The notes: a model not told the origin generated them from the sequence alone. A stretch of 64,000 bases of DNA from an uncultured bacterium (GCA_900548385.1 URKJ01000001.1:72360-136359), one strand, 5' to 3'; shown: positions 3,766 to 17,605, counted from the first letter of the stretch. A program made the numbers and translations.

Positions 3766-6700
3766 TTATCTGGTGGAATACGCCAGATTATAGGAGTTCG
3801 ACCACGAATTGACGTTGTTCGGACTCTTGGCGCGGATTTCCACGAAGTACTCGCCTGCGGCAAGCATACTCTTCGAGCTGTATCCGCTGTCTGTCTTGAT
3901 CAGAGAGACATTACCCGATTTTCCGCCATACTCGCTGGTCATCTTGAGGCTGACTTTTCCGCTGAAGTTGAAATTCAGATCAAGATAGCTTTCCTTATCC
4001 AGAGTGATCTTGTAGAAGTCACTGGGTTCATTATAGCCGACCCAGTCGGAAGTCGTCTGTCCGGCGGTGAGCGCCATGGCGTTTTCCTTGACGTTGTTGC
4101 CGCGGGAAGCGGGGGCGTAGCTCTCGTTGATCGAGAGATTGTAGAACGAGTTCTGATACCCCTTGCCTTTATCTCCGGATTCAACCGAGATATAGTACTC
4201 CTGTCCGGCTTTCAGCAGAACGTCCTTGCCGAAGATGTCGGCTGTTGCGTACTTTGCATCGGGTGTGCCCTTGATCGTTTTGCTCTTGAGCTTTTTGCCG
4301 GTGGTGTCGTACAGCGTCACTTTTATCTTGGATTCCACTTCCGTTATACCGAGTTCGACTGCTCCGTTGAGTGCGGATGTGAACTTGTAGTAGTCCACTT
4401 TGTCTCCGTATCCGACCCATCCGCCGGAGAAGAGACCGTGCCCGTTGACGTCGAGGAGAACCGACTGTGCGGATCCCGTGTCATTGTTCGCGGTTGCCGG
4501 CTGGAAGAGGTTGTCGGAAACGCCGATCGTGTAATCTGCGTTCTGCTTGCCTTTTCCTTTGTCGCCGGATTCCACCACGATGTACACTTTGCCTGAGGGG
4601 CAGAGAGCCGGTTTTTTGAAGATATTGGAATACTGTCCGGCTTTTACCGAAGCGGATGTAATCTTTCTGTAATCCGCATTGTAAACCGTTACCTTGACTT
4701 TGGCATTGGTGGAAACCGAAAGATTCAGGGAACCGGCAATGTCGCTGTTGATGACATAGTAGTCCTGAGCTTCGAGGTATCCCACGAATCCGGAAATGGA
4801 TCCGGTCTTCTGGCTGTCCGTCGTTGTCAGAATGATCTCTTCCGACTGATCGCCGAACCCTTTGTTCGGGGTCCAGTCCGGGAAGTAGGTCGAATCGAAA
4901 TTCAGGACATAGGAAGTCTGGGTATTGAACTTCTTCTTGTCCATGGCTTCCACCTTGATATAATAGAGGTTGGAGGCCAGGAGGTAATCGCTGAGCAAGG
5001 TTCCGCCGCCTGCGTTGACGGTGAACGATTTGAGCTTTTTCCATTTTCCGGACTGGTTGTCGGCATACAGCGTGATCTTGACTTTCTGGGAAAGTCCGGT
5101 GATGGAGAGGTTCAGTCTGCCGTTTTTCTCCACGCCGTCGTAACGGTAATAATGTTCGACATTGCCTTCCGTTCCGATCGTGCTGGTGATCGTTGCGGAA
5201 TAGGATCTGTCCGGCGTCGCGGAGGCGTTTGTATGTCCTTCCGGGTCCATGATTGATGTTCCGCTGCCCGGGTATATGGGATTCGGGACACCGCAATGTA
5301 CGGTCTGGCTGTTGCTGACCGGACTCCGTTTGCCGGAACCGTCGATAGCCGTCACCGTGACGGTGTAGGTACCCGCCGAGACCGGGAGCTCTTTGCCGCC
5401 GATAACGACCGTTGTGTCATTGATGTGCGGCTGAGTATAGAACAGCAGGGGCGCATCCACTCCGTTGGAGAGTGCGATTTCGTAGGTGTAGATTCCGAAC
5501 GGATCGAATACCGGCGACCATTCCAGATTCCACAGCGTTCCGTTGCTGCCTTCGACTTCTTCCGGAGCGTAAAGCTCCACCTGATCCGGAGCATAGTAAT
5601 CGTTCAAAGAGCGGTCCAGATCCTTGTCGGCGAGTTTGAACACATTTGTCTTGGAGTAGACGGTCTCGTTGCCGTAGGAGTCGATTGCGCAAACGCGCCA
5701 GTAAATGTCGGGGACATCGTTGTAGGTTGAGTAATAACCGTTTTTGCCCTGAGCCATTCCGGCGATATAGGCAATGCCGTTGTTGTCGGTGCTGAGCGTG
5801 AAGCTGCTGCCGGTGAACTCCTCGGAAAGGAGGAGATAATCGGAAGCGAAGTCCGCGGAGCTTGCCAGCTCGATCCGGTATTTGACCGCATCCGTGAACG
5901 TCGAATCCATGTCGAACTTGACGCTGATGCTGGTCGGCTGCCGGACCTGTGCACCGTTGCTGACTGTCGGGTCGTCCACCATCTCGTATGAAACGGTGAT
6001 GGTGGTATCCATGTCCGTGAATTCGCCTTTCGGCGGAGTCAGCTTGACGAAGAACGATCCCTGACCCTGAAGATAGCCTTCGTTTCCTGCCCAGTCTTTG
6101 GCTCCGACCCACCAGTTGTAGGTGCCTTCGGAGATGCCGTTGGCGAGGAGAATATCTCTTGTCAGAGTATAATTCGTTGCTCCGCCGACCGTGATGCAGA
6201 TCGCTTTTCCCGGATCGAGGGTCGAACTGGTGCTGAAGTAGAGGTTGTACTCTTTCAGACCGGAGACCGGTTCCCCGGCGGCACCGTTCGGATCGACTGC
6301 TCCGGACCATGTCAGCTGATAATTGTTGCCGGTGAGATCGGTGAGCGTCGTATTGGAGCTCGTAAACACCGGCTTCGTGACGTCGGTCATAGTCGAGAGG
6401 ACTTTGGATGTGACGGGCACATCAGGATAGTTCGTATCTCTGGCAACGATCACATAATCATATTTCGCATTGGGCGACACGGTGAAATTGAATTTCGTGG
6501 CGGAGGCGTCGGCTGTCATGAACGTTTCATAAACACCGCTGCCTGCAACGGCGCGTTTCAGTTCATAACCGGTTGGGATTCCGGAGCCGATGGACCACGA
6601 AATCGTAATGTTCAGCATGTCATTTTCATAAACGGACACGAGCTGTTCGTTTTTGAAAGTGAACGATTCCGGCGGCGGAACATAGCCGTCAAGCGTGAAC

Positions 6701-9700
6701 GTCTTATCGGCTTTCTGTTTGCCGGAGGAGAAGCCTTTTTCGTCAAAGGCTTCAACCGCCCATTCATAGACCGTATCTCCGAGGAGGACTTTGGTCATGG
6801 TGTCGTTCAGGAACGCTTTGACCGTGATGTTGGTCGATGTGTATTCCGGGGTGACTTCAATCCACTCCGTGGTGTTCTGCTGACGGACGTAGAGTTTGTA
6901 CCCTGAAAGCTGATAGGGCGATGAACTCGCTTCCGCCCAGGTGAAGTTGACGGTATAACCGTAATTTTCCACGGTTGCGCTGACATCCATTTCTCCGGTA
7001 GAGAGCAGGATCGTTCCCGGTTCTTCCGCCGTGATGGTCAGAGTCGGGGATTCAAAGACATTGCCGGCATTGTCTTCAACAAGAAGCCGCCAGTAAGTCG
7101 GGCATTCGTTGTTGTCGCCGACAACCGGAATATCCCGGGTGTCGATGGGCGGAGCCGTAACCGTGTAGGAGGACAGACCTTCCAGTTGAGCCGCATAACG
7201 GACATCAACGGTGATCCACTGCTTTTGTCCGCCGCTGGAGATTTTCTGGTACTGAACCGTATAGCTGTAAATGCCGGAAGGCGCGTCGATTTCCGAACTT
7301 TCCGGATCGTAGCCGCAGTTGACGGTCAGAGTCACCGCAAAATTTCTGCCGCCGGACGGATTTTCCACATACAGGTCATTTTTGTTTTCCGGTTCTTCCC
7401 AGGCGATGCTTGCCCCTGCCGGTTTGGTGATGTCTCCCTGCAGATCGCCGGATTTCAGGGCAGCGGATTCATTGCCGGAATAATCACGGGCGGTAATGTA
7501 ATAGCTGATCTTCTGATTCAGGCCGGAAAGACCGCTGATCACCGCTTTGTAATACTGATCCGAGTTCGGAGCAAGACGGATAGACTTATAGGAGGAGTCG
7601 CCTTCTTCTTTGTAGTAGAGCACATAGAATGCAATACCGGAACCGGTATCGTCCGCCAGTTTGCCATACCAGTTCAGGGTGACGGTATTCTTCGCATAAT
7701 TGTTCAGCGTCTGTTCCCCTGTATTCGGATTGGTTTCTTCCACACCGTCTGTTTTGACATAGTAGAAGTGGGGAGTGATTGCGATATTCTGACTGTTCGG
7801 AGTTGCAACCGGCGCTGTTGTATCGCCTCCGACCGTTGTGAAATGATAATTTTCACTCCAGATTTCATCCGCCGGTTCTCCGCCGGTCCCGTTGTTGGAA
7901 ACCGCTTTGACCCTCCAGTAATAATTGTTGCTGAAATCGACGTTGGACAGATAGAATTTATTGGTCGTGACACGGCGTGTCACAACTGTAAAGTTGGTAT
8001 TGTTTCCACTCCAGATCGCTTCCAGTTCCTCATCCGTCAAATTGGAGATGCTCTCGTCGTTGGTTGTAAAGAACTGGATCTCATAATATTGAAGTCCGGA
8101 TTCAAACGTATCACGCATATCATCCCACTGAAGAATGCTGACGGAATCGGCAAGCTGCCCGACCCGGAGATTCATCAGACCGGCAACCTGTGCCGTTTCT
8201 TCCTTGAGTGTGCCGTTTTCGATTTCGATTACATCGGACCATTCACTGGTCGTATAGGAACTGGTCGACGCAACATTTTTCAAACGGAGGCGGACTCTGA
8301 CCGCATCGCCCTGCTGAATATCGCTGAGCGTGTAAGAGGTCGCCAGATAATCCAGCGTGACAACGGTAGAGTTGCTCCAGCTGCCGTCTTTCTTTTTAAT
8401 GCTGTATTCCAGTTCATAACGGTTGGCATCCGTCAGGGCTTTGTTCAGCGCGGTATTCCATTCGACAATGAACTCTTCCGCTTCGGAGTCGATTCTTCCG
8501 GTTACGGTGAGGGTATCAATGCGTTCGGAGGAACCGGAAGCCGTATTGATGATTTCCGTCTGAATATTTTTGATCGTGTAGTCTGCCGGAACGGTGAAGC
8601 TGCTGCTTGTGCAGGGAACCGTGAGCTCGTAGGTTCTGGCTTTGCCTGTTTCATCGGTTACGATATTGCCGTTTCCGTCATACAGATTGTAGGTGATGTG
8701 GAGACTGTAATTGCTGTCATAGTTGAGCTTGTCGCGGTCGATGTCATTGGAGAATGTGTAGGAAATCACATTGCCGTTGATTTCCAGATTGACCGTGTTG
8801 GCAAGCCGTCCCTGATATGCCGTTGCCGATTTCGTTACTTCGACGGAGACCGTATTTCCCTGAACTCTGCCGGTGATACTCGTTCCATCGGTAAAGGTGA
8901 CAACCGGGCTGGAATTCATATTCAGCAGTTTTGCTTCTCCCTTGTAGACTACGGTCAGGTTTTTGCTGCCGCCGGCGACCATGCCGCTGTCAAAGAGCGT
9001 ATAAGTCACACCGCTTGCCGCATCGTTGAGGTCGACGACATAAGTCGTACTTTCTTCGATGAAACTGCCGTTGTAGACTTTTTCGTTGCGGATGTCTCCG
9101 TTGACGGAACCATATTGATTCAGCATGAACGTAACGTTTCTTCTTCCGCCCTGATCGGTGGCGTCTGAAATCAGTTCTCCATTGATCTGTGCGTTACTGT
9201 CAATATAGATTTCATCGGTTCCGGAACCAAGATTGATGTTTCCTGTGATCGTGGCTCCCGCTGCGATTTCAATGTGGTCATTTCCTCCGCGCCAGGTTGT
9301 AAGCGTGTAACCGCGTCCGTTTGCGGAGGATTTGGACGGCTGATAAGAATAATAGCCGGAATAGATGGCGTAGTCGCCCGCTGTTCTTCCGACATTGATG
9401 TCGGAAGAAATGCGGATGTTGGTGGCTCCGGAATCCCGGATCATCAGACCGACTTTAATTGCATTGGTTCCGGTTACGGTAATATCCCCGATAATATCGA
9501 ACGAGGAGGTCTGGACGTTGAAGACGGAATCCACATTATTGACGAATTTGTCAATCTGAGCGCCGATAGCCAACCCGGTTTCAACTGTGAGATTGATATT
9601 CGCCGCCAAAGAACCTGCGTTCAGCGTTTCCGCCTTGATGCCGATCACCGTTGCATAAGCTCTTTCGCCGGCTTCCGCTCCGCTGAGGTTCATTGTGATA

Positions 9701-11692: not shown

Positions 11693-12100
11693 ATGAGATC
11701 ATGGGATGAATTATATGAAGCCGCATTGGCAAAATTGAGCCCGCGCGCGGTGTCGCCGTTCGTTGAGGCGGGCGGAGTCGCGGCGGCGATCGGAACGGAG
11801 ACGGGGAATATCTATTGCGGAGTCTGCATGGATACCGCGTGTTCGCTCGGAATGTGTGCGGAACGCGCCGCCGTTGCGGCGATGATCACCGCGGGAGAAA
11901 GCAGAATCCGCCGGATCGTCTGTCTGATGGGCGACCGGAAGCCCGGAATGCCCTGCGGAGCCTGCCGGGAACTGCTGATGCAGCTGGACGGGGAGAGCGG
12001 TTCGATTGAAATCCTCTCCGGATATCCGGAAATACAGACCGTGACGCTCGGCGAGCTTTCGCCTGCGTGGTGGGGCAGAGAGCGGTTCAATGGCGAATGA
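11693..12100 (+). CDS. cdd: Cytidine/deoxycytidylate deaminase family protein (cytidine deaminase-like)
   Basis: Zinc-binding motifs CAERAAVAAM and PCGACRELL. ATG 11693 is preceded by GGAG (11682-11685). Confidence 0.85.
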   Translation: MRSWDELYEAALAKLSPRAVSPFVEAGGVAAAIGTETGNIYCGVCMDTACSLGMCAERAAVAAMITAGESRIRRIVCLMGDRKPGMPCGACRELLMQLDGESGSIEILSGYPEIQTVTLGELSPAWWGRERFNGE

Positions 12101-12704
12101 CACTGGAATGTTCCGCAAGGAGGCGGCGCGCCTGATCCGTATGCGGGAAGAGGATTTTGCTCTGCGGCAGTCTCTGCTTGATGCCGGGGAGCTTTTGGAC
12201 GGCTATCATCCCCGGATGGAGGCGATGCACCGGAGTCATGCGGAGTCTCTGCGGGAGATCATCGCCCGGATCGGTTATCCGACTGTGAGGAAAGTCGGTG
12301 CGGATGCGTCGAACGCCGCGTGGCTGATTGTTCAGCATGCGATCGGCGAACCGGATTTCATGCGGGAGATCTGCGCCCGGCTGCGAAGTCTCGCCCCGGA
12401 GGACGCCGATCCGCGCAATGCCGCGTTTCTGGAAGACCGTATCCGGATGTATGAGGGGCGTCCCCAGCTTTACGGAACCCAGTTCGATTTTGATGATTCC
12501 GGCGTGCTGTCGCCCGTGCCGTTTGACGACCGGGAGGCGGTGAACCGTCGCCGCGCCGCGCTTGGAATGAACTCTTTGGAAGAGCGTACGGAGGAGATCC
12601 GCCGTGCACAGGGCGGGGACCGGGTTCTGCCGCCGGAGGAACTGAAACGCTATCGTGCCGCTTACCGCAAATGGCTTGCGGCGACCGGATGGCGGCAGAG
12701 CTGA
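12090..12704 (+). CDS. Conserved hypothetical protein (possibly DUF6624-like)
   Basis: 204-aa ORF with coding-like composition. NAAWLIVQHA segment. Overlaps the cdd end by 11 nt. No catalytic motif recognised. Confidence 0.6.
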   Translation: MANDTGMFRKEAARLIRMREEDFALRQSLLDAGELLDGYHPRMEAMHRSHAESLREIIARIGYPTVRKVGADASNAAWLIVQHAIGEPDFMREICARLRSLAPEDADPRNAAFLEDRIRMYEGRPQLYGTQFDFDDSGVLSPVPFDDREAVNRRRAALGMNSLEERTEEIRRAQGGDRVLPPEELKRYRAAYRKWLAATGWRQS

Positions 12705-12708
12705 ACCG

Positions 12709-13296
12709 TCAGTTCTGCTCTGCCCGCTGTTTTGCTTCGATGGCTTCCCGGAGGGGCTTCCCGTTGATGATCAGTTCTTTCACCGCATAATTGCCGTCCG
12801 GGTAGACCAGAACGAGAAGTTCCGCCTGTTTTGCTTTGCGCAGGAGCTCGTCCGCCGCAGATGCGTTTTTCTCATTGAGAAAATAACGGGTGAACGGGAA
12901 GACAAAGCGATGGGTGCCCCGTTCGAGTCTCTGATTGCCCTGCCATTTTCTGGTGATTCCGTGGTAGCGGATCCGCAGACAGGGACGGTTTGGGGCGTTC
13001 TTTTCCGAGAGCTCCGTTACAGTGGCAAAATTGTCCTTGTCGCGTCCGAGAACCGCATATTTATAAGGACGGAAAGTGAAATCTTCCGTTTCCAGTTCCG
13101 GAGTTTTGATGTCGAGCGTGATGTAGCGTCCGCGGAACGGATCGTATGGATCGACGCCGGCAACCCGGAAGCGGAATTCCTGCGGCGGAACCGCGGGGAA
13201 TTCGTAGGAGCGGATCTTCTGCGCCGGATACCAGAGCGCGGCAAGCAGAAGCGGGATAAGGGCGAGCAGACGGAGTTTTGCGGTCCGGTTCATCAT
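12709..13296 (-). CDS. GDYXXLXY domain-containing membrane-anchored protein
   Basis: N-terminal signal/anchor (LRLLALIPLLLAALW). DPYDPFRGRYITLDI corresponds to the GDYXXLXY-family core. ATGA overlap with the upstream DUF2157 gene, the usual partner of this family. Confidence 0.75.
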   Translation of the reverse strand: MMNRTAKLRLLALIPLLLAALWYPAQKIRSYEFPAVPPQEFRFRVAGVDPYDPFRGRYITLDIKTPELETEDFTFRPYKYAVLGRDKDNFATVTELSEKNAPNRPCLRIRYHGITRKWQGNQRLERGTHRFVFPFTRYFLNEKNASAADELLRKAKQAELLVLVYPDGNYAVKELIINGKPLREAIEAKQRAEQN

Positions 13297-14522
13297 GCGT
13301 GGCCTCCTTTCCGGGTAAAGCGGCGCGACAGCCAGAGGTTCAGGAGCAGGAAGATGATCCCTGCCGTCAGGAATGCGACCGCGCGGTCAAGAATGGTGTA
13401 ATGCCCTCCGAAGAAGTGGACAGCCAACAGTGCGTAAAGCTGGAGTTGACCGAGGTTCAGCAGGAGCAGATCGGCGCGGCGGACGCCGTCGATCAGAAAC
13501 AGGGCTCCGGAAAGGATCAGCAGTCCGGACGCTGTCAGTTCGGTGGTTCCCGGCGAGAGCGAACAGAGGAACGGGAACACCGCGTAGAGGGTCAGCAGCA
13601 GATTCAGCGCATTGACATGCCGGAACAGCTGTACGGAAAGCATTGCCAGAAAGATCGCGCCCGACAGGATGAATTTCCAGTTCGGATCAAAGATTTTCGT
13701 AAGCGAATCCGTACTGAAGATGAGCAGATAAACGGTGACTGTGACGAATCCGCACTGAAGCCACGGATCGCGGAACCAGGCGGCTTTTCCGGTTTGCCGC
13801 AGATTGAATCCGCCGCACAGGAACGCGGCTGCGGCAAGCGGGATCAGGAACTGTATATTTTTTCCCACCGAGCAGAGAAGTGCGATTCCCGCGGGGATCG
13901 CGGCATAACGGATCAGCATGGAGTCGCGTCGCAGATGCGGAACGGCAAAGGGAATCCAGAGAATCGTGCAGACTATCGGAAACCAGTGTTCGCCGCTCCA
14001 GTCCGTGATTGCAAACTGGACCAGGGCAATCGCAACGATCAGGGCGAGGACCCGGCTGTTGAACAGATACATCAGGACGAGGGCGAACGGCAGGTTCAGC
14101 GTCAGGAAATCAAACAGGGAGCCGTCGATGTGATAGATCTGCGAGACCAGAGCGTTGAGTGTGACGATCGCCGCTGTGAGCAGAAGTGCCGCGGCTTCCA
14201 GCCAGACTCCTGTTTTTCCGCGGATCAGTACAAATCCGGCAAACAGCGCCGCGAGAAGGAACGGAATAAAGGTGATCAGGAGTCGCCCTGTTTTGGGAAG
14301 AGCGTCCCAGTTGTGCGCCGTGAACAGGATAATGCTTCCGGCGATCAGCAGAGCGGCGAAGATGCCGAGAACGGTGAACAGGAGTCCCCGCAGGGAGTTT
14401 TCCTTGAGTTCGCCGGAATAATGTTCGCGGAGTCGTTCCGCGGCGGTGCTGTCGATCACTCCCGCATTCTGCAATCGGGGCAGCTCGTTCAGGAACCATT
14501 GAATGGATTTCAGATCTTTCAT
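13293..14522 (-). CDS. DUF2157-type polytopic membrane protein
   Basis: Soluble N-terminal segment WFLNELPRLQNAGVIDSTAAERLREHY, followed by about 10 or more hydrophobic helices. Typical neighbour of GDYXXLXY proteins. Confidence 0.75.
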   Translation of the reverse strand: MKDLKSIQWFLNELPRLQNAGVIDSTAAERLREHYSGELKENSLRGLLFTVLGIFAALLIAGSIILFTAHNWDALPKTGRLLITFIPFLLAALFAGFVLIRGKTGVWLEAAALLLTAAIVTLNALVSQIYHIDGSLFDFLTLNLPFALVLMYLFNSRVLALIVAIALVQFAITDWSGEHWFPIVCTILWIPFAVPHLRRDSMLIRYAAIPAGIALLCSVGKNIQFLIPLAAAAFLCGGFNLRQTGKAAWFRDPWLQCGFVTVTVYLLIFSTDSLTKIFDPNWKFILSGAIFLAMLSVQLFRHVNALNLLLTLYAVFPFLCSLSPGTTELTASGLLILSGALFLIDGVRRADLLLLNLGQLQLYALLAVHFFGGHYTILDRAVAFLTAGIIFLLLNLWLSRRFTRKGGHA

Positions 14523-14543
14523 AGCTTTCCTTTCGTCTTGAGA

Positions 14544-16418
14544 TTAATGGAGAACGGGAGGATAACGGTGTGTGCCGTGGGGCGGATCGCACCGGTCTTC
14601 ATTCGTCGGGATGACTTCGTCCGGTTTTTCCGGATCCGGTTCCCACAGAGGGGTTTCGAGCCAGGTGATGCCGCTCTGACGCCACGCCTGGTCGCTGAGT
14701 TTTTTCAGCATTGTGTGATAGAACCCGAATTTGTTCTGCATGTCCTGCGGGATTTCGTCAAGCGAGTTGACCGTTCCCAGTTTGGGCAGATATTCCACGA
14801 TGAATTCAAACCAGAGATAATCCGCCAGCTGGTTGCGTCCGGGATCTTCCAGCGAGGTCGGTATGATGGCGCTGTTGGTGAAGACCGGCAGGACGATTCC
14901 GGAAAGATGCGGCGGCTGGAGGTCGTTATCCACGGAAAGCGCGCCGAACGGTTTCGCCACGGAATAGGCGTAAATATGCGGCGCGTTGTGCTGGAGACGG
15001 CTCTGTGCGTAATCCAGCCGGTTTTCACCGGATCCGGTTTGAAGATATTCCGTGGTTTCGCCGGATGTTTTCGGCATGAAGCTGTTCCGGAAGATGTCGC
15101 CGAGACGTTTATCCTTGTCCCCGTTGACGCCGAGAGTTCCGGTTACCGTAACTGTTTCCGTTTCGATGTCCATGCGGGACACTGCGCCGGAATAGTAAAG
15201 CGCCTGTTTTTTGAACGGTGCGGAAAGGTAGTCTTCCCAGAGTGAGGTCTGTGTCTGGTCATAGCTGCGCCACCGCCAGTTGTAGTATGCCCAGCTGAGC
15301 GCGGGGAGGGGATTGAGCTTGCGGTCCCTGTCGCCGTTCGGGGTATCGACGATTTCGCCGTCCCGGTTGTAGACCGGATCGAACAGATCGTAATGGTCCA
15401 TGAGTTTGGTTGCGTTGTAACCGGCTTTTTTCAGCTGGTCGTCGATCAGGGAACTTTCTTTCAGAACGTTCCAGGTGTTGCTCTGTGCGTTTTTGATTTC
15501 CACGCCGACCGGCAGGTATTCGCTTTCCTGCCGGAATGTCGCGTCTTCATCGGTGACCAGGTTTCCCCACCAGTTGGAGGCGTCGAAGTTCATGCGCAGG
15601 AGCTCTTTCAGCCAGCACCAGTAATTTGCCTGAATCGCATCATAGATATACCGGGACTGGAGGTATCCGGCAAAATCGTTTCCGGTCGGCGGAACGGTTT
15701 TGACTCTGGGTGAGCCGAGCAGCTGCGCGTTCGGCAGAACGGCGATTCCTTTGGAGGTGTCGCCGCCGTCGTTCAGCAGGATGGTGTCGAGAGTGCCGAG
15801 GTACGGGGCTTTCCAGTTGTAGCCGAACATGTTCCGTCTGATATAATCGGGCGTCATATATTGTTCAAAGACGTTTTTCCGGTTTACGTTGGTCGGATTT
15901 TCCACATAGAGCATTTGATTGCGGACCGCTTCGCCGTATGACTCGTTATAATTGAGTCCGTTGTTTTTTGCGGTCTGCTGTGCCGCTCCGAATCCGATCA
16001 GCGGGACGATGAACAGCGCTCTCTGCTGAATCTGGGAAACGGTATCGGAGGCGATTTCCAGTTCTTTCAGCTGAGTGGCGCGTTTCTGTATGGCGTCTTC
16101 TTCGTTTTCAACATGCAGAAAGCTGTCCGGCGTTTGCTGCATTCCCGTCCCGAACATGGAATCGGAGATCAGAACGGTTGTGGCTTTGACAAGATTCAGT
16201 TCTCCGATCAGGTTCAGCGTATGTCTCTGCCAGTTGGCGCCGGTCAGAGCCGCCGCATCGACGGCGTTCTGGGATTTGACTTTGGCGCGGATTACGTTGG
16301 AAATGTCAAGCAGGAGAAATATCGCCAGCGTCAGGATCAGCAGAGCGATCAGCGCCAGGATCAGAACCTGTCCGCGCTCCCGGTGTTTTCTGTAAAAACG
16401 CGTTTTCATCATGATCAT
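14544..16418 (-). CDS. TadG-like / Tad-domain pseudopilin-like protein (624 aa)
   Basis: N-terminus RERGQVLILALIALLILTLAIFLLLDISNVIRAKVKSQNAVDAAALTGA matches the Tad (putative Flp pilus assembly TadE/G-like) N-terminal domain. Start ATG 16418 forms an ATGA overlap with the upstream gene stop. No vWA MIDAS motif seen. Confidence 0.8.
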   Translation of the reverse strand: MIMMKTRFYRKHRERGQVLILALIALLILTLAIFLLLDISNVIRAKVKSQNAVDAAALTGANWQRHTLNLIGELNLVKATTVLISDSMFGTGMQQTPDSFLHVENEEDAIQKRATQLKELEIASDTVSQIQQRALFIVPLIGFGAAQQTAKNNGLNYNESYGEAVRNQMLYVENPTNVNRKNVFEQYMTPDYIRRNMFGYNWKAPYLGTLDTILLNDGGDTSKGIAVLPNAQLLGSPRVKTVPPTGNDFAGYLQSRYIYDAIQANYWCWLKELLRMNFDASNWWGNLVTDEDATFRQESEYLPVGVEIKNAQSNTWNVLKESSLIDDQLKKAGYNATKLMDHYDLFDPVYNRDGEIVDTPNGDRDRKLNPLPALSWAYYNWRWRSYDQTQTSLWEDYLSAPFKKQALYYSGAVSRMDIETETVTVTGTLGVNGDKDKRLGDIFRNSFMPKTSGETTEYLQTGSGENRLDYAQSRLQHNAPHIYAYSVAKPFGALSVDNDLQPPHLSGIVLPVFTNSAIIPTSLEDPGRNQLADYLWFEFIVEYLPKLGTVNSLDEIPQDMQNKFGFYHTMLKKLSDQAWRQSGITWLETPLWEPDPEKPDEVIPTNEDRCDPPHGTHRYPPVLH

Positions 16419-17050
16419 TCCAGATATGCGGTTGACTGTTTTGCCATTTTCGTTTCTCCGGAGATGTTCATTTTTCCGCCGGTCTGAGGCTGGAATGCTC
16501 CGCGGAAAGGCATGACCCACGGATAATCCCTGAATTCGGAGCGGGCGGTGAACGTGTCGCCCTGATGAGTCAGTCCGGTCTCGAAACTGGTTTTGTATTC
16601 GGAGAGGTCATTATTCTCTCCTTCCCTGTTCCACCAGTATTGATAGCGCAGGCCGTTCTGCCGTTGACGCATATAATCCAAAATGACCAGGCGTTCGTAG
16701 TAAAACTGTTCGATTGCCGTTTTGAAAGGCAGGGAATCGCTGTTTCCGTTGAGCAGATCGACCGGTGCGCGCATCTGTCCGGCGGCGGGAATGACTTTGA
16801 GGCGCGCCTCCCGCTGATAGGCGTCTTCGCGGAAACCGACCGTAGCCGAGCGCGCGGCGCGGAATGCCGCATAGTCCGTGACCATCTGAGCGACTGAATA
16901 GTAGAAGAACTGGAGCAGCCCGAATGTCAGCAGAAGGATCAGGAACATGCAGAGCATGGCTTCCACAATAGAGGAAGCCCGCTCTCCGGACCGGATTTGC
17001 GGGCGCAGTTTCCGCATTGGTTCTCTTTCGCGTGTGACGAAAGCGGTCAC
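16415..17050 (-). CDS. TadE-like pseudopilin
   Basis: GERASSIVEAMLCMFLILLLTFGLLQFFYY matches the TadE-like N-terminal motif (G-x4-E + hydrophobic helix). GTG 17050 overlaps the flp stop (GTGA); ATG 17017 is an alternative start. Confidence 0.8.
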   Translation of the reverse strand: MTAFVTREREPMRKLRPQIRSGERASSIVEAMLCMFLILLLTFGLLQFFYYSVAQMVTDYAAFRAARSATVGFREDAYQREARLKVIPAAGQMRAPVDLLNGNSDSLPFKTAIEQFYYERLVILDYMRQRQNGLRYQYWWNREGENNDLSEYKTSFETGLTHQGDTFTARSEFRDYPWVMPFRGAFQPQTGGKMNISGETKMAKQSTAYLE

Positions 17051-17298
17051 TCGGTGGTAATGCCGCCCTTGTCGAGCTCTTTGAGGGTCTCGACCGAGCC
17101 CTTGTCCACGGCGGAATCGACATCCTTGGAGGTTCCGAGCGTAGCGGCGGCTCCGCCGATCTTTTCCCGGATCGTGTCGCTGAAAATTCCCAGCACAGCA
17201 AGAGCGGCGAGCGCAACGATTACCACAATAATGATATATTCCACGATCGCCTGTCCTTTGCAGCGTTTTTTCATCTGTTTGAGTTTTGCCATGTCCAT
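17047..17298 (-). CDS. flp: Flp family type IVb pilin
   Basis: KGQAIVEYIIIVVIVALAALAVLGIF is the Flp motif (G/xxxxEY followed by a hydrophobic helix). GGAG lies 8 nt upstream of ATG. Confidence 0.85.
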   Translation of the reverse strand: MDMAKLKQMKKRCKGQAIVEYIIIVVIVALAALAVLGIFSDTIREKIGGAAATLGTSKDVDSAVDKGSVETLKELDKGGITTE

Positions 17299-17314
17299 AG
17301 CCGATACTCCTTTC

Positions 17315-17488
17315 TTACACCCACGGCTCCCAGCCGATCAGTGCGGTTATTCTCCATCCGTACTCAAGAAACACCGCCAGCAAAAGAAGCATGACGGCTG
17401 CCACCAAAACAAACATGACGATCAGAATCGCGTATTCCGTGAGGACCTGTCCCCGTTCCGCGCGGTTCTTTTTCATCCATGTCTGCAT
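17315..17488 (-). CDS. Second Flp-like pilin (57 aa)
   Basis: MQTWMKKNRAERGQVLTEYAILIVMFVLVAAVMLLLL carries the G/QVLTEY Flp motif. GGAG RBS. The TTGCGT-17-TATAAT promoter lies immediately upstream. The longer ORF-track start (17611) would run through that promoter. Confidence 0.7.
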   Translation of the reverse strand: MQTWMKKNRAERGQVLTEYAILIVMFVLVAAVMLLLLAVFLEYGWRITALIGWEPWV

Positions 17489-17512
17489 AGGGGTTCTCCG
17501 GTTTTCTGCGGT

Positions 17513-17541
17513 AATTATAGCATGAAAGAGAAGACAACGCA
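17513..17541 (-). promoter_or_regulatory. Sigma70-type promoter for the flp/tad operon
   Basis: Minus strand reads TTGCGT (17541-17536), 17-nt spacer, TATAAT (17518-17513), about 25 nt upstream of ATG 17488. Confidence 0.55.
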
Positions 17542-17605
17542 AGAGGAGTTTCAGAAAAAAATTCATTTTCCCGCAATATTTTTTCTTTTTTCTCCGTTTG
17601 AAAAA

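Follow-up and report, generated by a model that had tools for sequence, protein, structure and literature searches.

Pilin genes that stand without the machinery for their assembly raise the question of which machine they serve. We addressed this question for positions 12,709 to 17,541 of a 64,000-nucleotide stretch of DNA (the window), which corresponds to C1:72360-136359 in the 4.5-Mb, 77-contig genome (G000) of an uncultured gut Lentisphaeria bacterium. Here two Flp-type prepilins (Flp1 and Flp2), a TadE-like and a TadG-like protein are encoded by four consecutive genes, the cassette, which are followed by a gene pair for a DUF2157 membrane protein and a GDYXXLXY-family protein. A preliminary description of the window had left two readings side by side: the cassette might supply substrates to a tight adherence (Tad) system encoded elsewhere, or the DUF2157/GDYXXLXY pair might provide a membrane platform or anchor for the pilins. 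We consider it likely that the region combines the pilin set of a split Tad pilus, whose core machinery is encoded on contig C6, with an unrelated DUF2157/GDYXXLXY pair that was placed there only in this genus.

The window lacks Tad machinery, as had been noticed before, and the rest of the genome carries it. The genome-wide search for motor genes that the preliminary description had suggested returned three CpaF/TadB/TadC loci, located on contigs C5, C6 and C47. In all three the CpaF-like ATPase has an N-terminal FHA domain and precedes the TadB and TadC genes, each with a single T2SSF domain. The loci on C5 and C47 are complete and comprise RcpC, a secretin, FHA-CpaF, TadB, TadC, two Flp proteins, an A24 peptidase of 178-184 amino acids (aa), TadE, TadG and a second TadE; the C5 peptidase alone was run directly through Pfam, and the other genes of these two loci were named by sequence motifs and whole-genome family matches. 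The third locus (C6:125518-133514), here called the C6 core, encodes RcpC/CpaB, FHA-CpaF, TadB, TadC, a DUF192 protein, a 445-aa FHA protein, a PEGA lipoprotein with four PEGA domains and a 190-aa membrane protein. In the annotation of this interval no pilin, peptidase or secretin gene was found, and neither the window nor the C6-type core contains a dedicated TadV/CpaA peptidase together with an RcpA/CpaC secretin of the same system. The genome holds no close paralogues of the six window proteins, with DUF2157 and GDYXXLXY each present as a single copy; only weak matches (E ~1e-3) were obtained for Flp2 and TadE to the C5/C47 pilins.

An indication of the partner comes from a phyletic profile of 61 Lentisphaeria genomes. 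The cassette was detected in 19 of them, and a C6-type CpaF was present in exactly the same 19 genomes and in 0/42 of the others. Seventeen of these CpaF calls reached at least 642 bits and at least 55% identity, and the other two (G019 and G181) were contig-end fragments. Eight genomes with only a C5/C47-type CpaF (at most 520 bits, about 48% identity) had no cassette, and 34 genomes had neither. Cassette and C6-type CpaF are jointly absent from some members of genus g9 (G025, G043 and G046, versus G019 and G037), from genera g8 and g12, and from part of family f44 (G163 versus G178). Therefore, their co-occurrence does not go back to one split on the tree. Moreover, six genomes (G016, G049, G010, G031, G037 and G052) possess the cassette with a C6-type CpaF only, and C5/C47-type motors are therefore excluded as a required partner.

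Physical linkage points in the same direction. In G167 the whole cassette divergently adjoins RcpC-CpaF-TadB-TadC. In G037 Flp1 and Flp2 divergently adjoin RcpC-CpaF (locus L154, contig C36), and TadE and TadG lie alone on another contig (L160, C1); a TadE-TadG pair without Flp genes was likewise found in G019. The C6-type order RcpC-CpaF-TadB-TadC-DUF192-FHA-PEGA is kept in G049, G016 and G178, where no pilins occur within 19 kb. Together, the co-occurrence and the adjacency in G167 and G037 support the first of the two readings, in which the cassette supplies substrates to a Tad system at another locus, and name the C6 core as its partner. As a separate observation, no TadB or TadC follows CpaF in L154, the system being more scattered in genus g9.

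The cassette also behaves as a unit of its own. Using the TadG-like alignment we recovered 78 cassette loci from Victivallales, Lentisphaerales and a few metagenome-assembled genomes (MAGs) of Kiritimatiellota, Verrucomicrobia and the Planctomycetes-Verrucomicrobia-Chlamydiae (PVC) group. One of them, L078, is a MAG record that carries the label Victivallis vadensis. Most of them contain all four genes in the order Flp1-Flp2-TadE-TadG; the exceptions were truncated contigs and the most distant loci. No Tad machinery was found near the cassette in the loci checked gene by gene. The flanks rearrange, as around L029 and L030, where a TPR-TrmH-DapF block is flipped with respect to the cassette. 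Because the gene order recurs while the neighbouring genes differ, we regard the cassette as a discrete module. The named relatives of the window proteins all belong to Lentisphaeria or Victivallales and are mostly gut or rumen MAGs. In many Lentisphaeria and some other PVC bacteria, gut members included, Tad pilin and motor genes would routinely lie apart, and "orphan" Flp/TadE/TadG cassettes and "pilin-less" CpaF loci should be read together when these genomes are annotated.

The second half of the question concerns the DUF2157/GDYXXLXY pair. Of the 151 genomes in the phylum sample, 48 contained PF14345, and the two genes were mutually adjacent in 20/20 Lentisphaeria loci fetched, in agreement with their earlier description as a conserved pair; in the window, too, PF09925 and PF14345 are adjacent and both above their cut-offs. 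The cassette lies beside the pair in four of these 20 loci, all from the GTDB genus of the window, and in none of five loci from other genera of the same family or 11 more distant ones. In the TadG tree all 10 linked loci fall into one clade of 14 tips (support 1.0), whose remaining tips are three unlinked loci and one that is too short for a call, and the 50 other informative loci are unlinked. Among 23 genomes scored for both modules, four carried both, nine the cassette only, four the pair only and six neither. These counts indicate that cassette and pair are present independently of each other; in two of the four genomes carrying both, the modules are not adjacent.

The junction between tadG and DUF2157 varies within the linked clade. 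The genes overlap or are separated by 10-21 nucleotides (nt) in the subclade of the window, by 166-168 nt in the L021/L036 subclade and by 880 nt in L032. A sigma-54-like motif, TGGCAY-N5-YTGCT, is conserved 64 nt before the DUF2157 start in L021 (9920-9940), L027, L028 and L036, and was found neither in the window nor in the 24 other loci of the scan. The motif in the 166-168-nt spacer suggests a promoter of its own for DUF2157 in this subclade. In the window no match to a sigma-54 promoter was found near 14523-14700 or upstream of flp1. With an adjacency limited to the genus and to one shallow clade, independent presence of the modules and a sigma-54-like motif in the sister subclade, the role of the pair as a platform or anchor for the pilins was left unsupported. 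The preliminary description had named, as an outcome that would speak against such a role, an adjacency unique to this genome and not conserved in relatives. Strictly, this is not the case, as the adjacency persists in the genus, but it extends no further than the genus and one unplaced close relative. As a side observation, a gene for a sigma-54 activator (5312-6820) lies just upstream of the cassette in L021.

Transcription of the cassette had been attributed to a TTGCGT-17-TATAAT promoter. Its -35 box matches only 3/6 positions of TTGACA, and a consensus scan did not list it. Nevertheless, the extended form CTTGCGTT-N15-TGcTATAAT (CTTGCGTT-N15-TGCTATAAT) is invariant in eight loci of the clade, whose TadG proteins are 44-94% identical to that of the window. 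Because it is invariant across these loci while the flanks vary, we accept the element on the minus strand at 17514-17542 (TTGCGT at 17542-17537, a 17-nt spacer and the extended -10 TGcTATAAT at 17522-17514) as the probable promoter of the cassette. A GGAG lies 8 nt upstream of the flp1 start. At the other end, a ribosome-binding site (AAGGA) lies in the 21-nt gap between tadG and DUF2157, where no terminator-like site was predicted in the window. Co-transcription across this gap is plausible, and in the genus of the window the cassette and the pair probably share one transcript.

From these results we propose the following explanation. The cassette (17488-14544) would provide all pilins of a split Tad (type IVc) pilus. 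Flp2 would probably build the fibre, with Flp1 as a probable minor or adapter pilin. The TadE-like protein and the large TadG-like protein would act as minor pilins, the latter with its C-terminal domain at the pilus tip, and the C6 core (G000 C6:125518-133514) would assemble them. A general PilD-type A24 peptidase may cleave the leader after the conserved glycine. We favour this enzyme because it is the only A24 peptidase in relatives with just the split Tad system, where its open frame has the size of a PilD (282-320 aa); the G000 counterpart lies at C20:10344. The pair (14522-12709) would have been placed downstream of tadG once, in the ancestor of the genus, one juxtaposition event being the simplest reading. 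The spacer would later have collapsed in the lineage of the window, and the pair would now probably be read through from the cassette promoter while taking no part in pilus biogenesis. Secretin domains gave 6-13 matches per genome (G000, G016, G049, G031, G037 and G052), many of them in adjacent pairs. An assignment of a secretin partner from size classes was rejected as too weak, and none was tied to the split Tad system. One adjacent secretin pair, C1:42251 and C1:44938, is located just upstream of the window.

A comparable arrangement was described for the Tad-like Kil system of Myxococcus xanthus. Herrou et al. reported TadE/F/G-like 'tip' clusters at separate loci, one of which encodes an Flp adapter of 59 aa (Herrou et al. 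2025, PMC12075869), and proposed as the tip backbone a large TadG-like protein whose C-terminal domain varies (PMC12075869). In our case, too, pilin and minor-pilin genes lie apart from the machinery. However, the Kil system has four tip clusters, whereas here there is one cassette, which also carries the probable major pilin, with one TadE-like gene and no TadF. In contrast to Kil, no link to predation or to a type III secretion system is known here, and the bacterium is a gut Lentisphaeria.

Canonical tad loci keep pilins and machinery together, as in Aggregatibacter (flp-tadV-rcpCAB-tadZABCDEFG) or in the cpa locus of Caulobacter. The split system shares with them, and with the loci on C5 and C47, Flp proteins with a G/XXXXEY motif, TadE, TadG with a Tad domain, RcpC/CpaB, CpaF, TadB and TadC. 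It differs in that these components are divided over two loci and that the C6 core is devoid of a secretin, a TadV-type peptidase and a pilin (TadZ/CpaE was not looked for). Further differences are the N-terminal FHA domain of its CpaF and the additional core genes for DUF192, the FHA protein and the PEGA lipoprotein. The pair likewise resembles the DUF2157 (PF09925)/DUF4401/GDYXXLXY (PF14345) module known elsewhere in its usual tight arrangement with an ATGA overlap. However, a DUF4401-like part is undetectable in the 409-aa DUF2157 protein, whose C-terminal 250 aa gave no Pfam match at E<=10, DUF4401 included. The name motif of the GDYXXLXY protein is degenerate (GRYITLDI), and a position of the pair behind Tad pilin genes is limited to this genus and one unplaced close relative.

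Could the cassette serve another machine, or none? It might supply the complete Tad systems on C5 or C47 with additional pilins or tips that are interchangeable, since both have dedicated small A24 peptidases and secretins, which the C6 core lacks, and interchangeable tip sets on one machine are documented in Myxococcus. This is very improbable given the six genomes that carry the cassette but no C5/C47-type CpaF and the eight with a C5/C47-type CpaF alone and no cassette. Moreover, the loci on C5 and C47 come with their own Flp, TadE and TadG genes, and the physical adjacency observed is to a C6-type core. That cassette and C6 core form a short pseudopilus or secretion device with no external adhesive pilus, or that the cassette acts without a Tad motor, would be in line with the missing secretin and dedicated peptidase in or beside either module, with secretin matches too numerous to single out an outer-membrane partner, and with a TadG-like C-terminal domain that has no fold match in the PDB. 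We consider this unlikely, as both Flp families retain the classical G/XXXXEY motif and the perfect co-occurrence of the cassette with a C6-type CpaF argues for dependence on a motor. The C6 core also keeps RcpC, which according to a published structure from Pseudomonas aeruginosa builds a periplasmic conduit for pilus extension (PMC12307814). Still, several points weigh against a split Tad pilus with the C6 core as its motor and an unrelated pair. The co-occurrence counts are phylogenetically non-independent, with about four separate co-absence events visible, and 2/19 C6-type CpaF calls are the fragments in G019 and G181. A core devoid of secretin and dedicated peptidase could belong to a non-canonical Tad-like device such as a periplasmic pseudopilus, and both the production of a pilus and the co-transcription are predictions from sequence. 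In addition, the tight junctions of 21 nt, 10 nt or with overlap would be compatible with a functional recruitment of the pair within the genus.

This last point leads to the view that the pair is a functional accessory of Flp, TadE and TadG, be it a membrane platform, an anchor or a chaperone, at least in this genus. The 21-nt gap with its ribosome-binding site and no terminator-like site would fit such a role, as would the overlapping or 10-nt junctions in the close relatives L024, L025, L033 and L089 and an adjacency that persists as TadG diverges to 42-53% identity. However, the other genera sampled show no adjacency, which also applies to five genomes of the same family in which the pair is present, and the two modules are present independently (4, 9, 4 and 6 genomes). 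In three loci of the linked clade tadG is not followed by the pair, and the sigma-54-like motif in L021, L027, L028 and L036 suggests a separate promoter. We therefore regard an accessory function as unlikely. There is a similarly small chance that the pair was captured into the pilin operon in one genus and now cooperates with the Tad pilus, for instance by holding pilins at the inner membrane; if so, this would be the first functional handle on the very widespread DUF2157/GDYXXLXY module. With the pair as an unrelated neighbour of the cassette, the proposed partnership mostly dissolves, and a misleading case of guilt by association would be spared for this module. In the literature that we found, GDYXXLXY received passing mentions only, one of them as a protein among 16 that co-purified with FtsX/EnvC in Fusobacterium; a literature search combining Lentisphaerae, Flp and Tad yielded nothing.

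The six minus-strand genes were confirmed as open reading frames at the coordinates first assigned to them, as were the gaps of 16 nt between flp1 and flp2 and of 21 nt between tadG and DUF2157 and the ATGA overlaps of tadE with tadG (16415-16418) and of DUF2157 with GDYXXLXY (13293-13296). A GTGA overlap of flp2 and tadE is doubtful. The frame of tadE spans 16415-17050, and its start is likelier the ATG at 17017 (200 aa), which leaves a 29-nt gap, than the GTG at 17050, because the called homologues begin after a gap and the family alignment starts near this methionine. A search of NCBIfam with the six window proteins returned no match above any cut-off.

Flp1 (17315-17488, minus strand) is a 57-aa Flp-type prepilin (MQTWMKKNRAERG/QVLTEY) and a candidate minor or adapter pilin. 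This protein (ERG/QVLTEY) had no Pfam match. Its homologues in 68 related loci share a conserved GQvl.EY and a C-terminal eYGwRi..Lv.weP. Flp2 (17047-17298, minus strand; 83 aa) is a prepilin of the same type with the motif KG/QAIVEYIIIVV and the candidate major pilin. It scored 15.1 bits against PF04964, under the gathering cut-off of 32.2, and GQAIVEYIII is nearly invariant among the 77 homologues of its family. Both proteins have the G/XXXXEY prepilin motif before a hydrophobic helix, and it is by this motif and their context, not as Pfam members, that the two are named Flp-type. The TadE-like minor pilin (minus strand) matches PF07811 at residues 26-67 (28.7 bits, cut-off 22.9) and has 80 homologues at the same cassette position.

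The TadG-like protein (14544-16418, minus strand; 624 aa) is a large minor pilin whose start overlaps the tadE stop. Pfam reports only the Tad domain PF13400 at residues 16-61 (38.4 bits, cut-off 22.3), and the earlier remark that no vWA motif is present holds. There are 212 full-length relatives, the named ones all from Lentisphaeria. An alignment of 22 sequences contains 62 invariant columns, including a GFGAAQQ.AKNNG block as well as Cys268 and Cys610. The AlphaFold2 model built from these 22 sequences (mean predicted local distance difference test 79, predicted template modelling score 0.74) combines a long helix at the N-terminus with a helical bundle and a C-terminal part of mixed alpha/beta structure, with the C-terminal region (about residues 200-610) modelled confidently. 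A Foldseek search of the PDB with this model gave no fold match at E<=0.001. The protein would fit best as a minor pilin at the tip, and its conserved C-terminal domain has no solved relative. This domain is a candidate adhesive tip, and a candidate new tip-adhesin fold, for these mucosa- and glycan-associated bacteria.

The DUF2157 polytopic membrane protein (13293-14522, minus strand; 409 aa) matches PF09925 at residues 16-159 (90.5 bits, cut-off 32.4). The GDYXXLXY-family protein (12709-13296, minus strand; 195 aa) has an N-terminal membrane anchor and matches PF14345 (50.4 bits, cut-off 27).

Among the neighbouring genes, panD (aspartate decarboxylase) and a divergent GATase_6/7 (asparagine-synthase-like) gene precede the cassette in more distant Victivallales (L022:6471-6848, L023:6388-6744), a recurring neighbourhood that was not seen in the window. 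No terminator-like site was predicted for the GDYXXLXY gene or for the DUF6624 gene next to it (PF20329, 58.7 bits; 12090-12704, plus strand). These two genes are convergent, with 4 nt between their stop codons.

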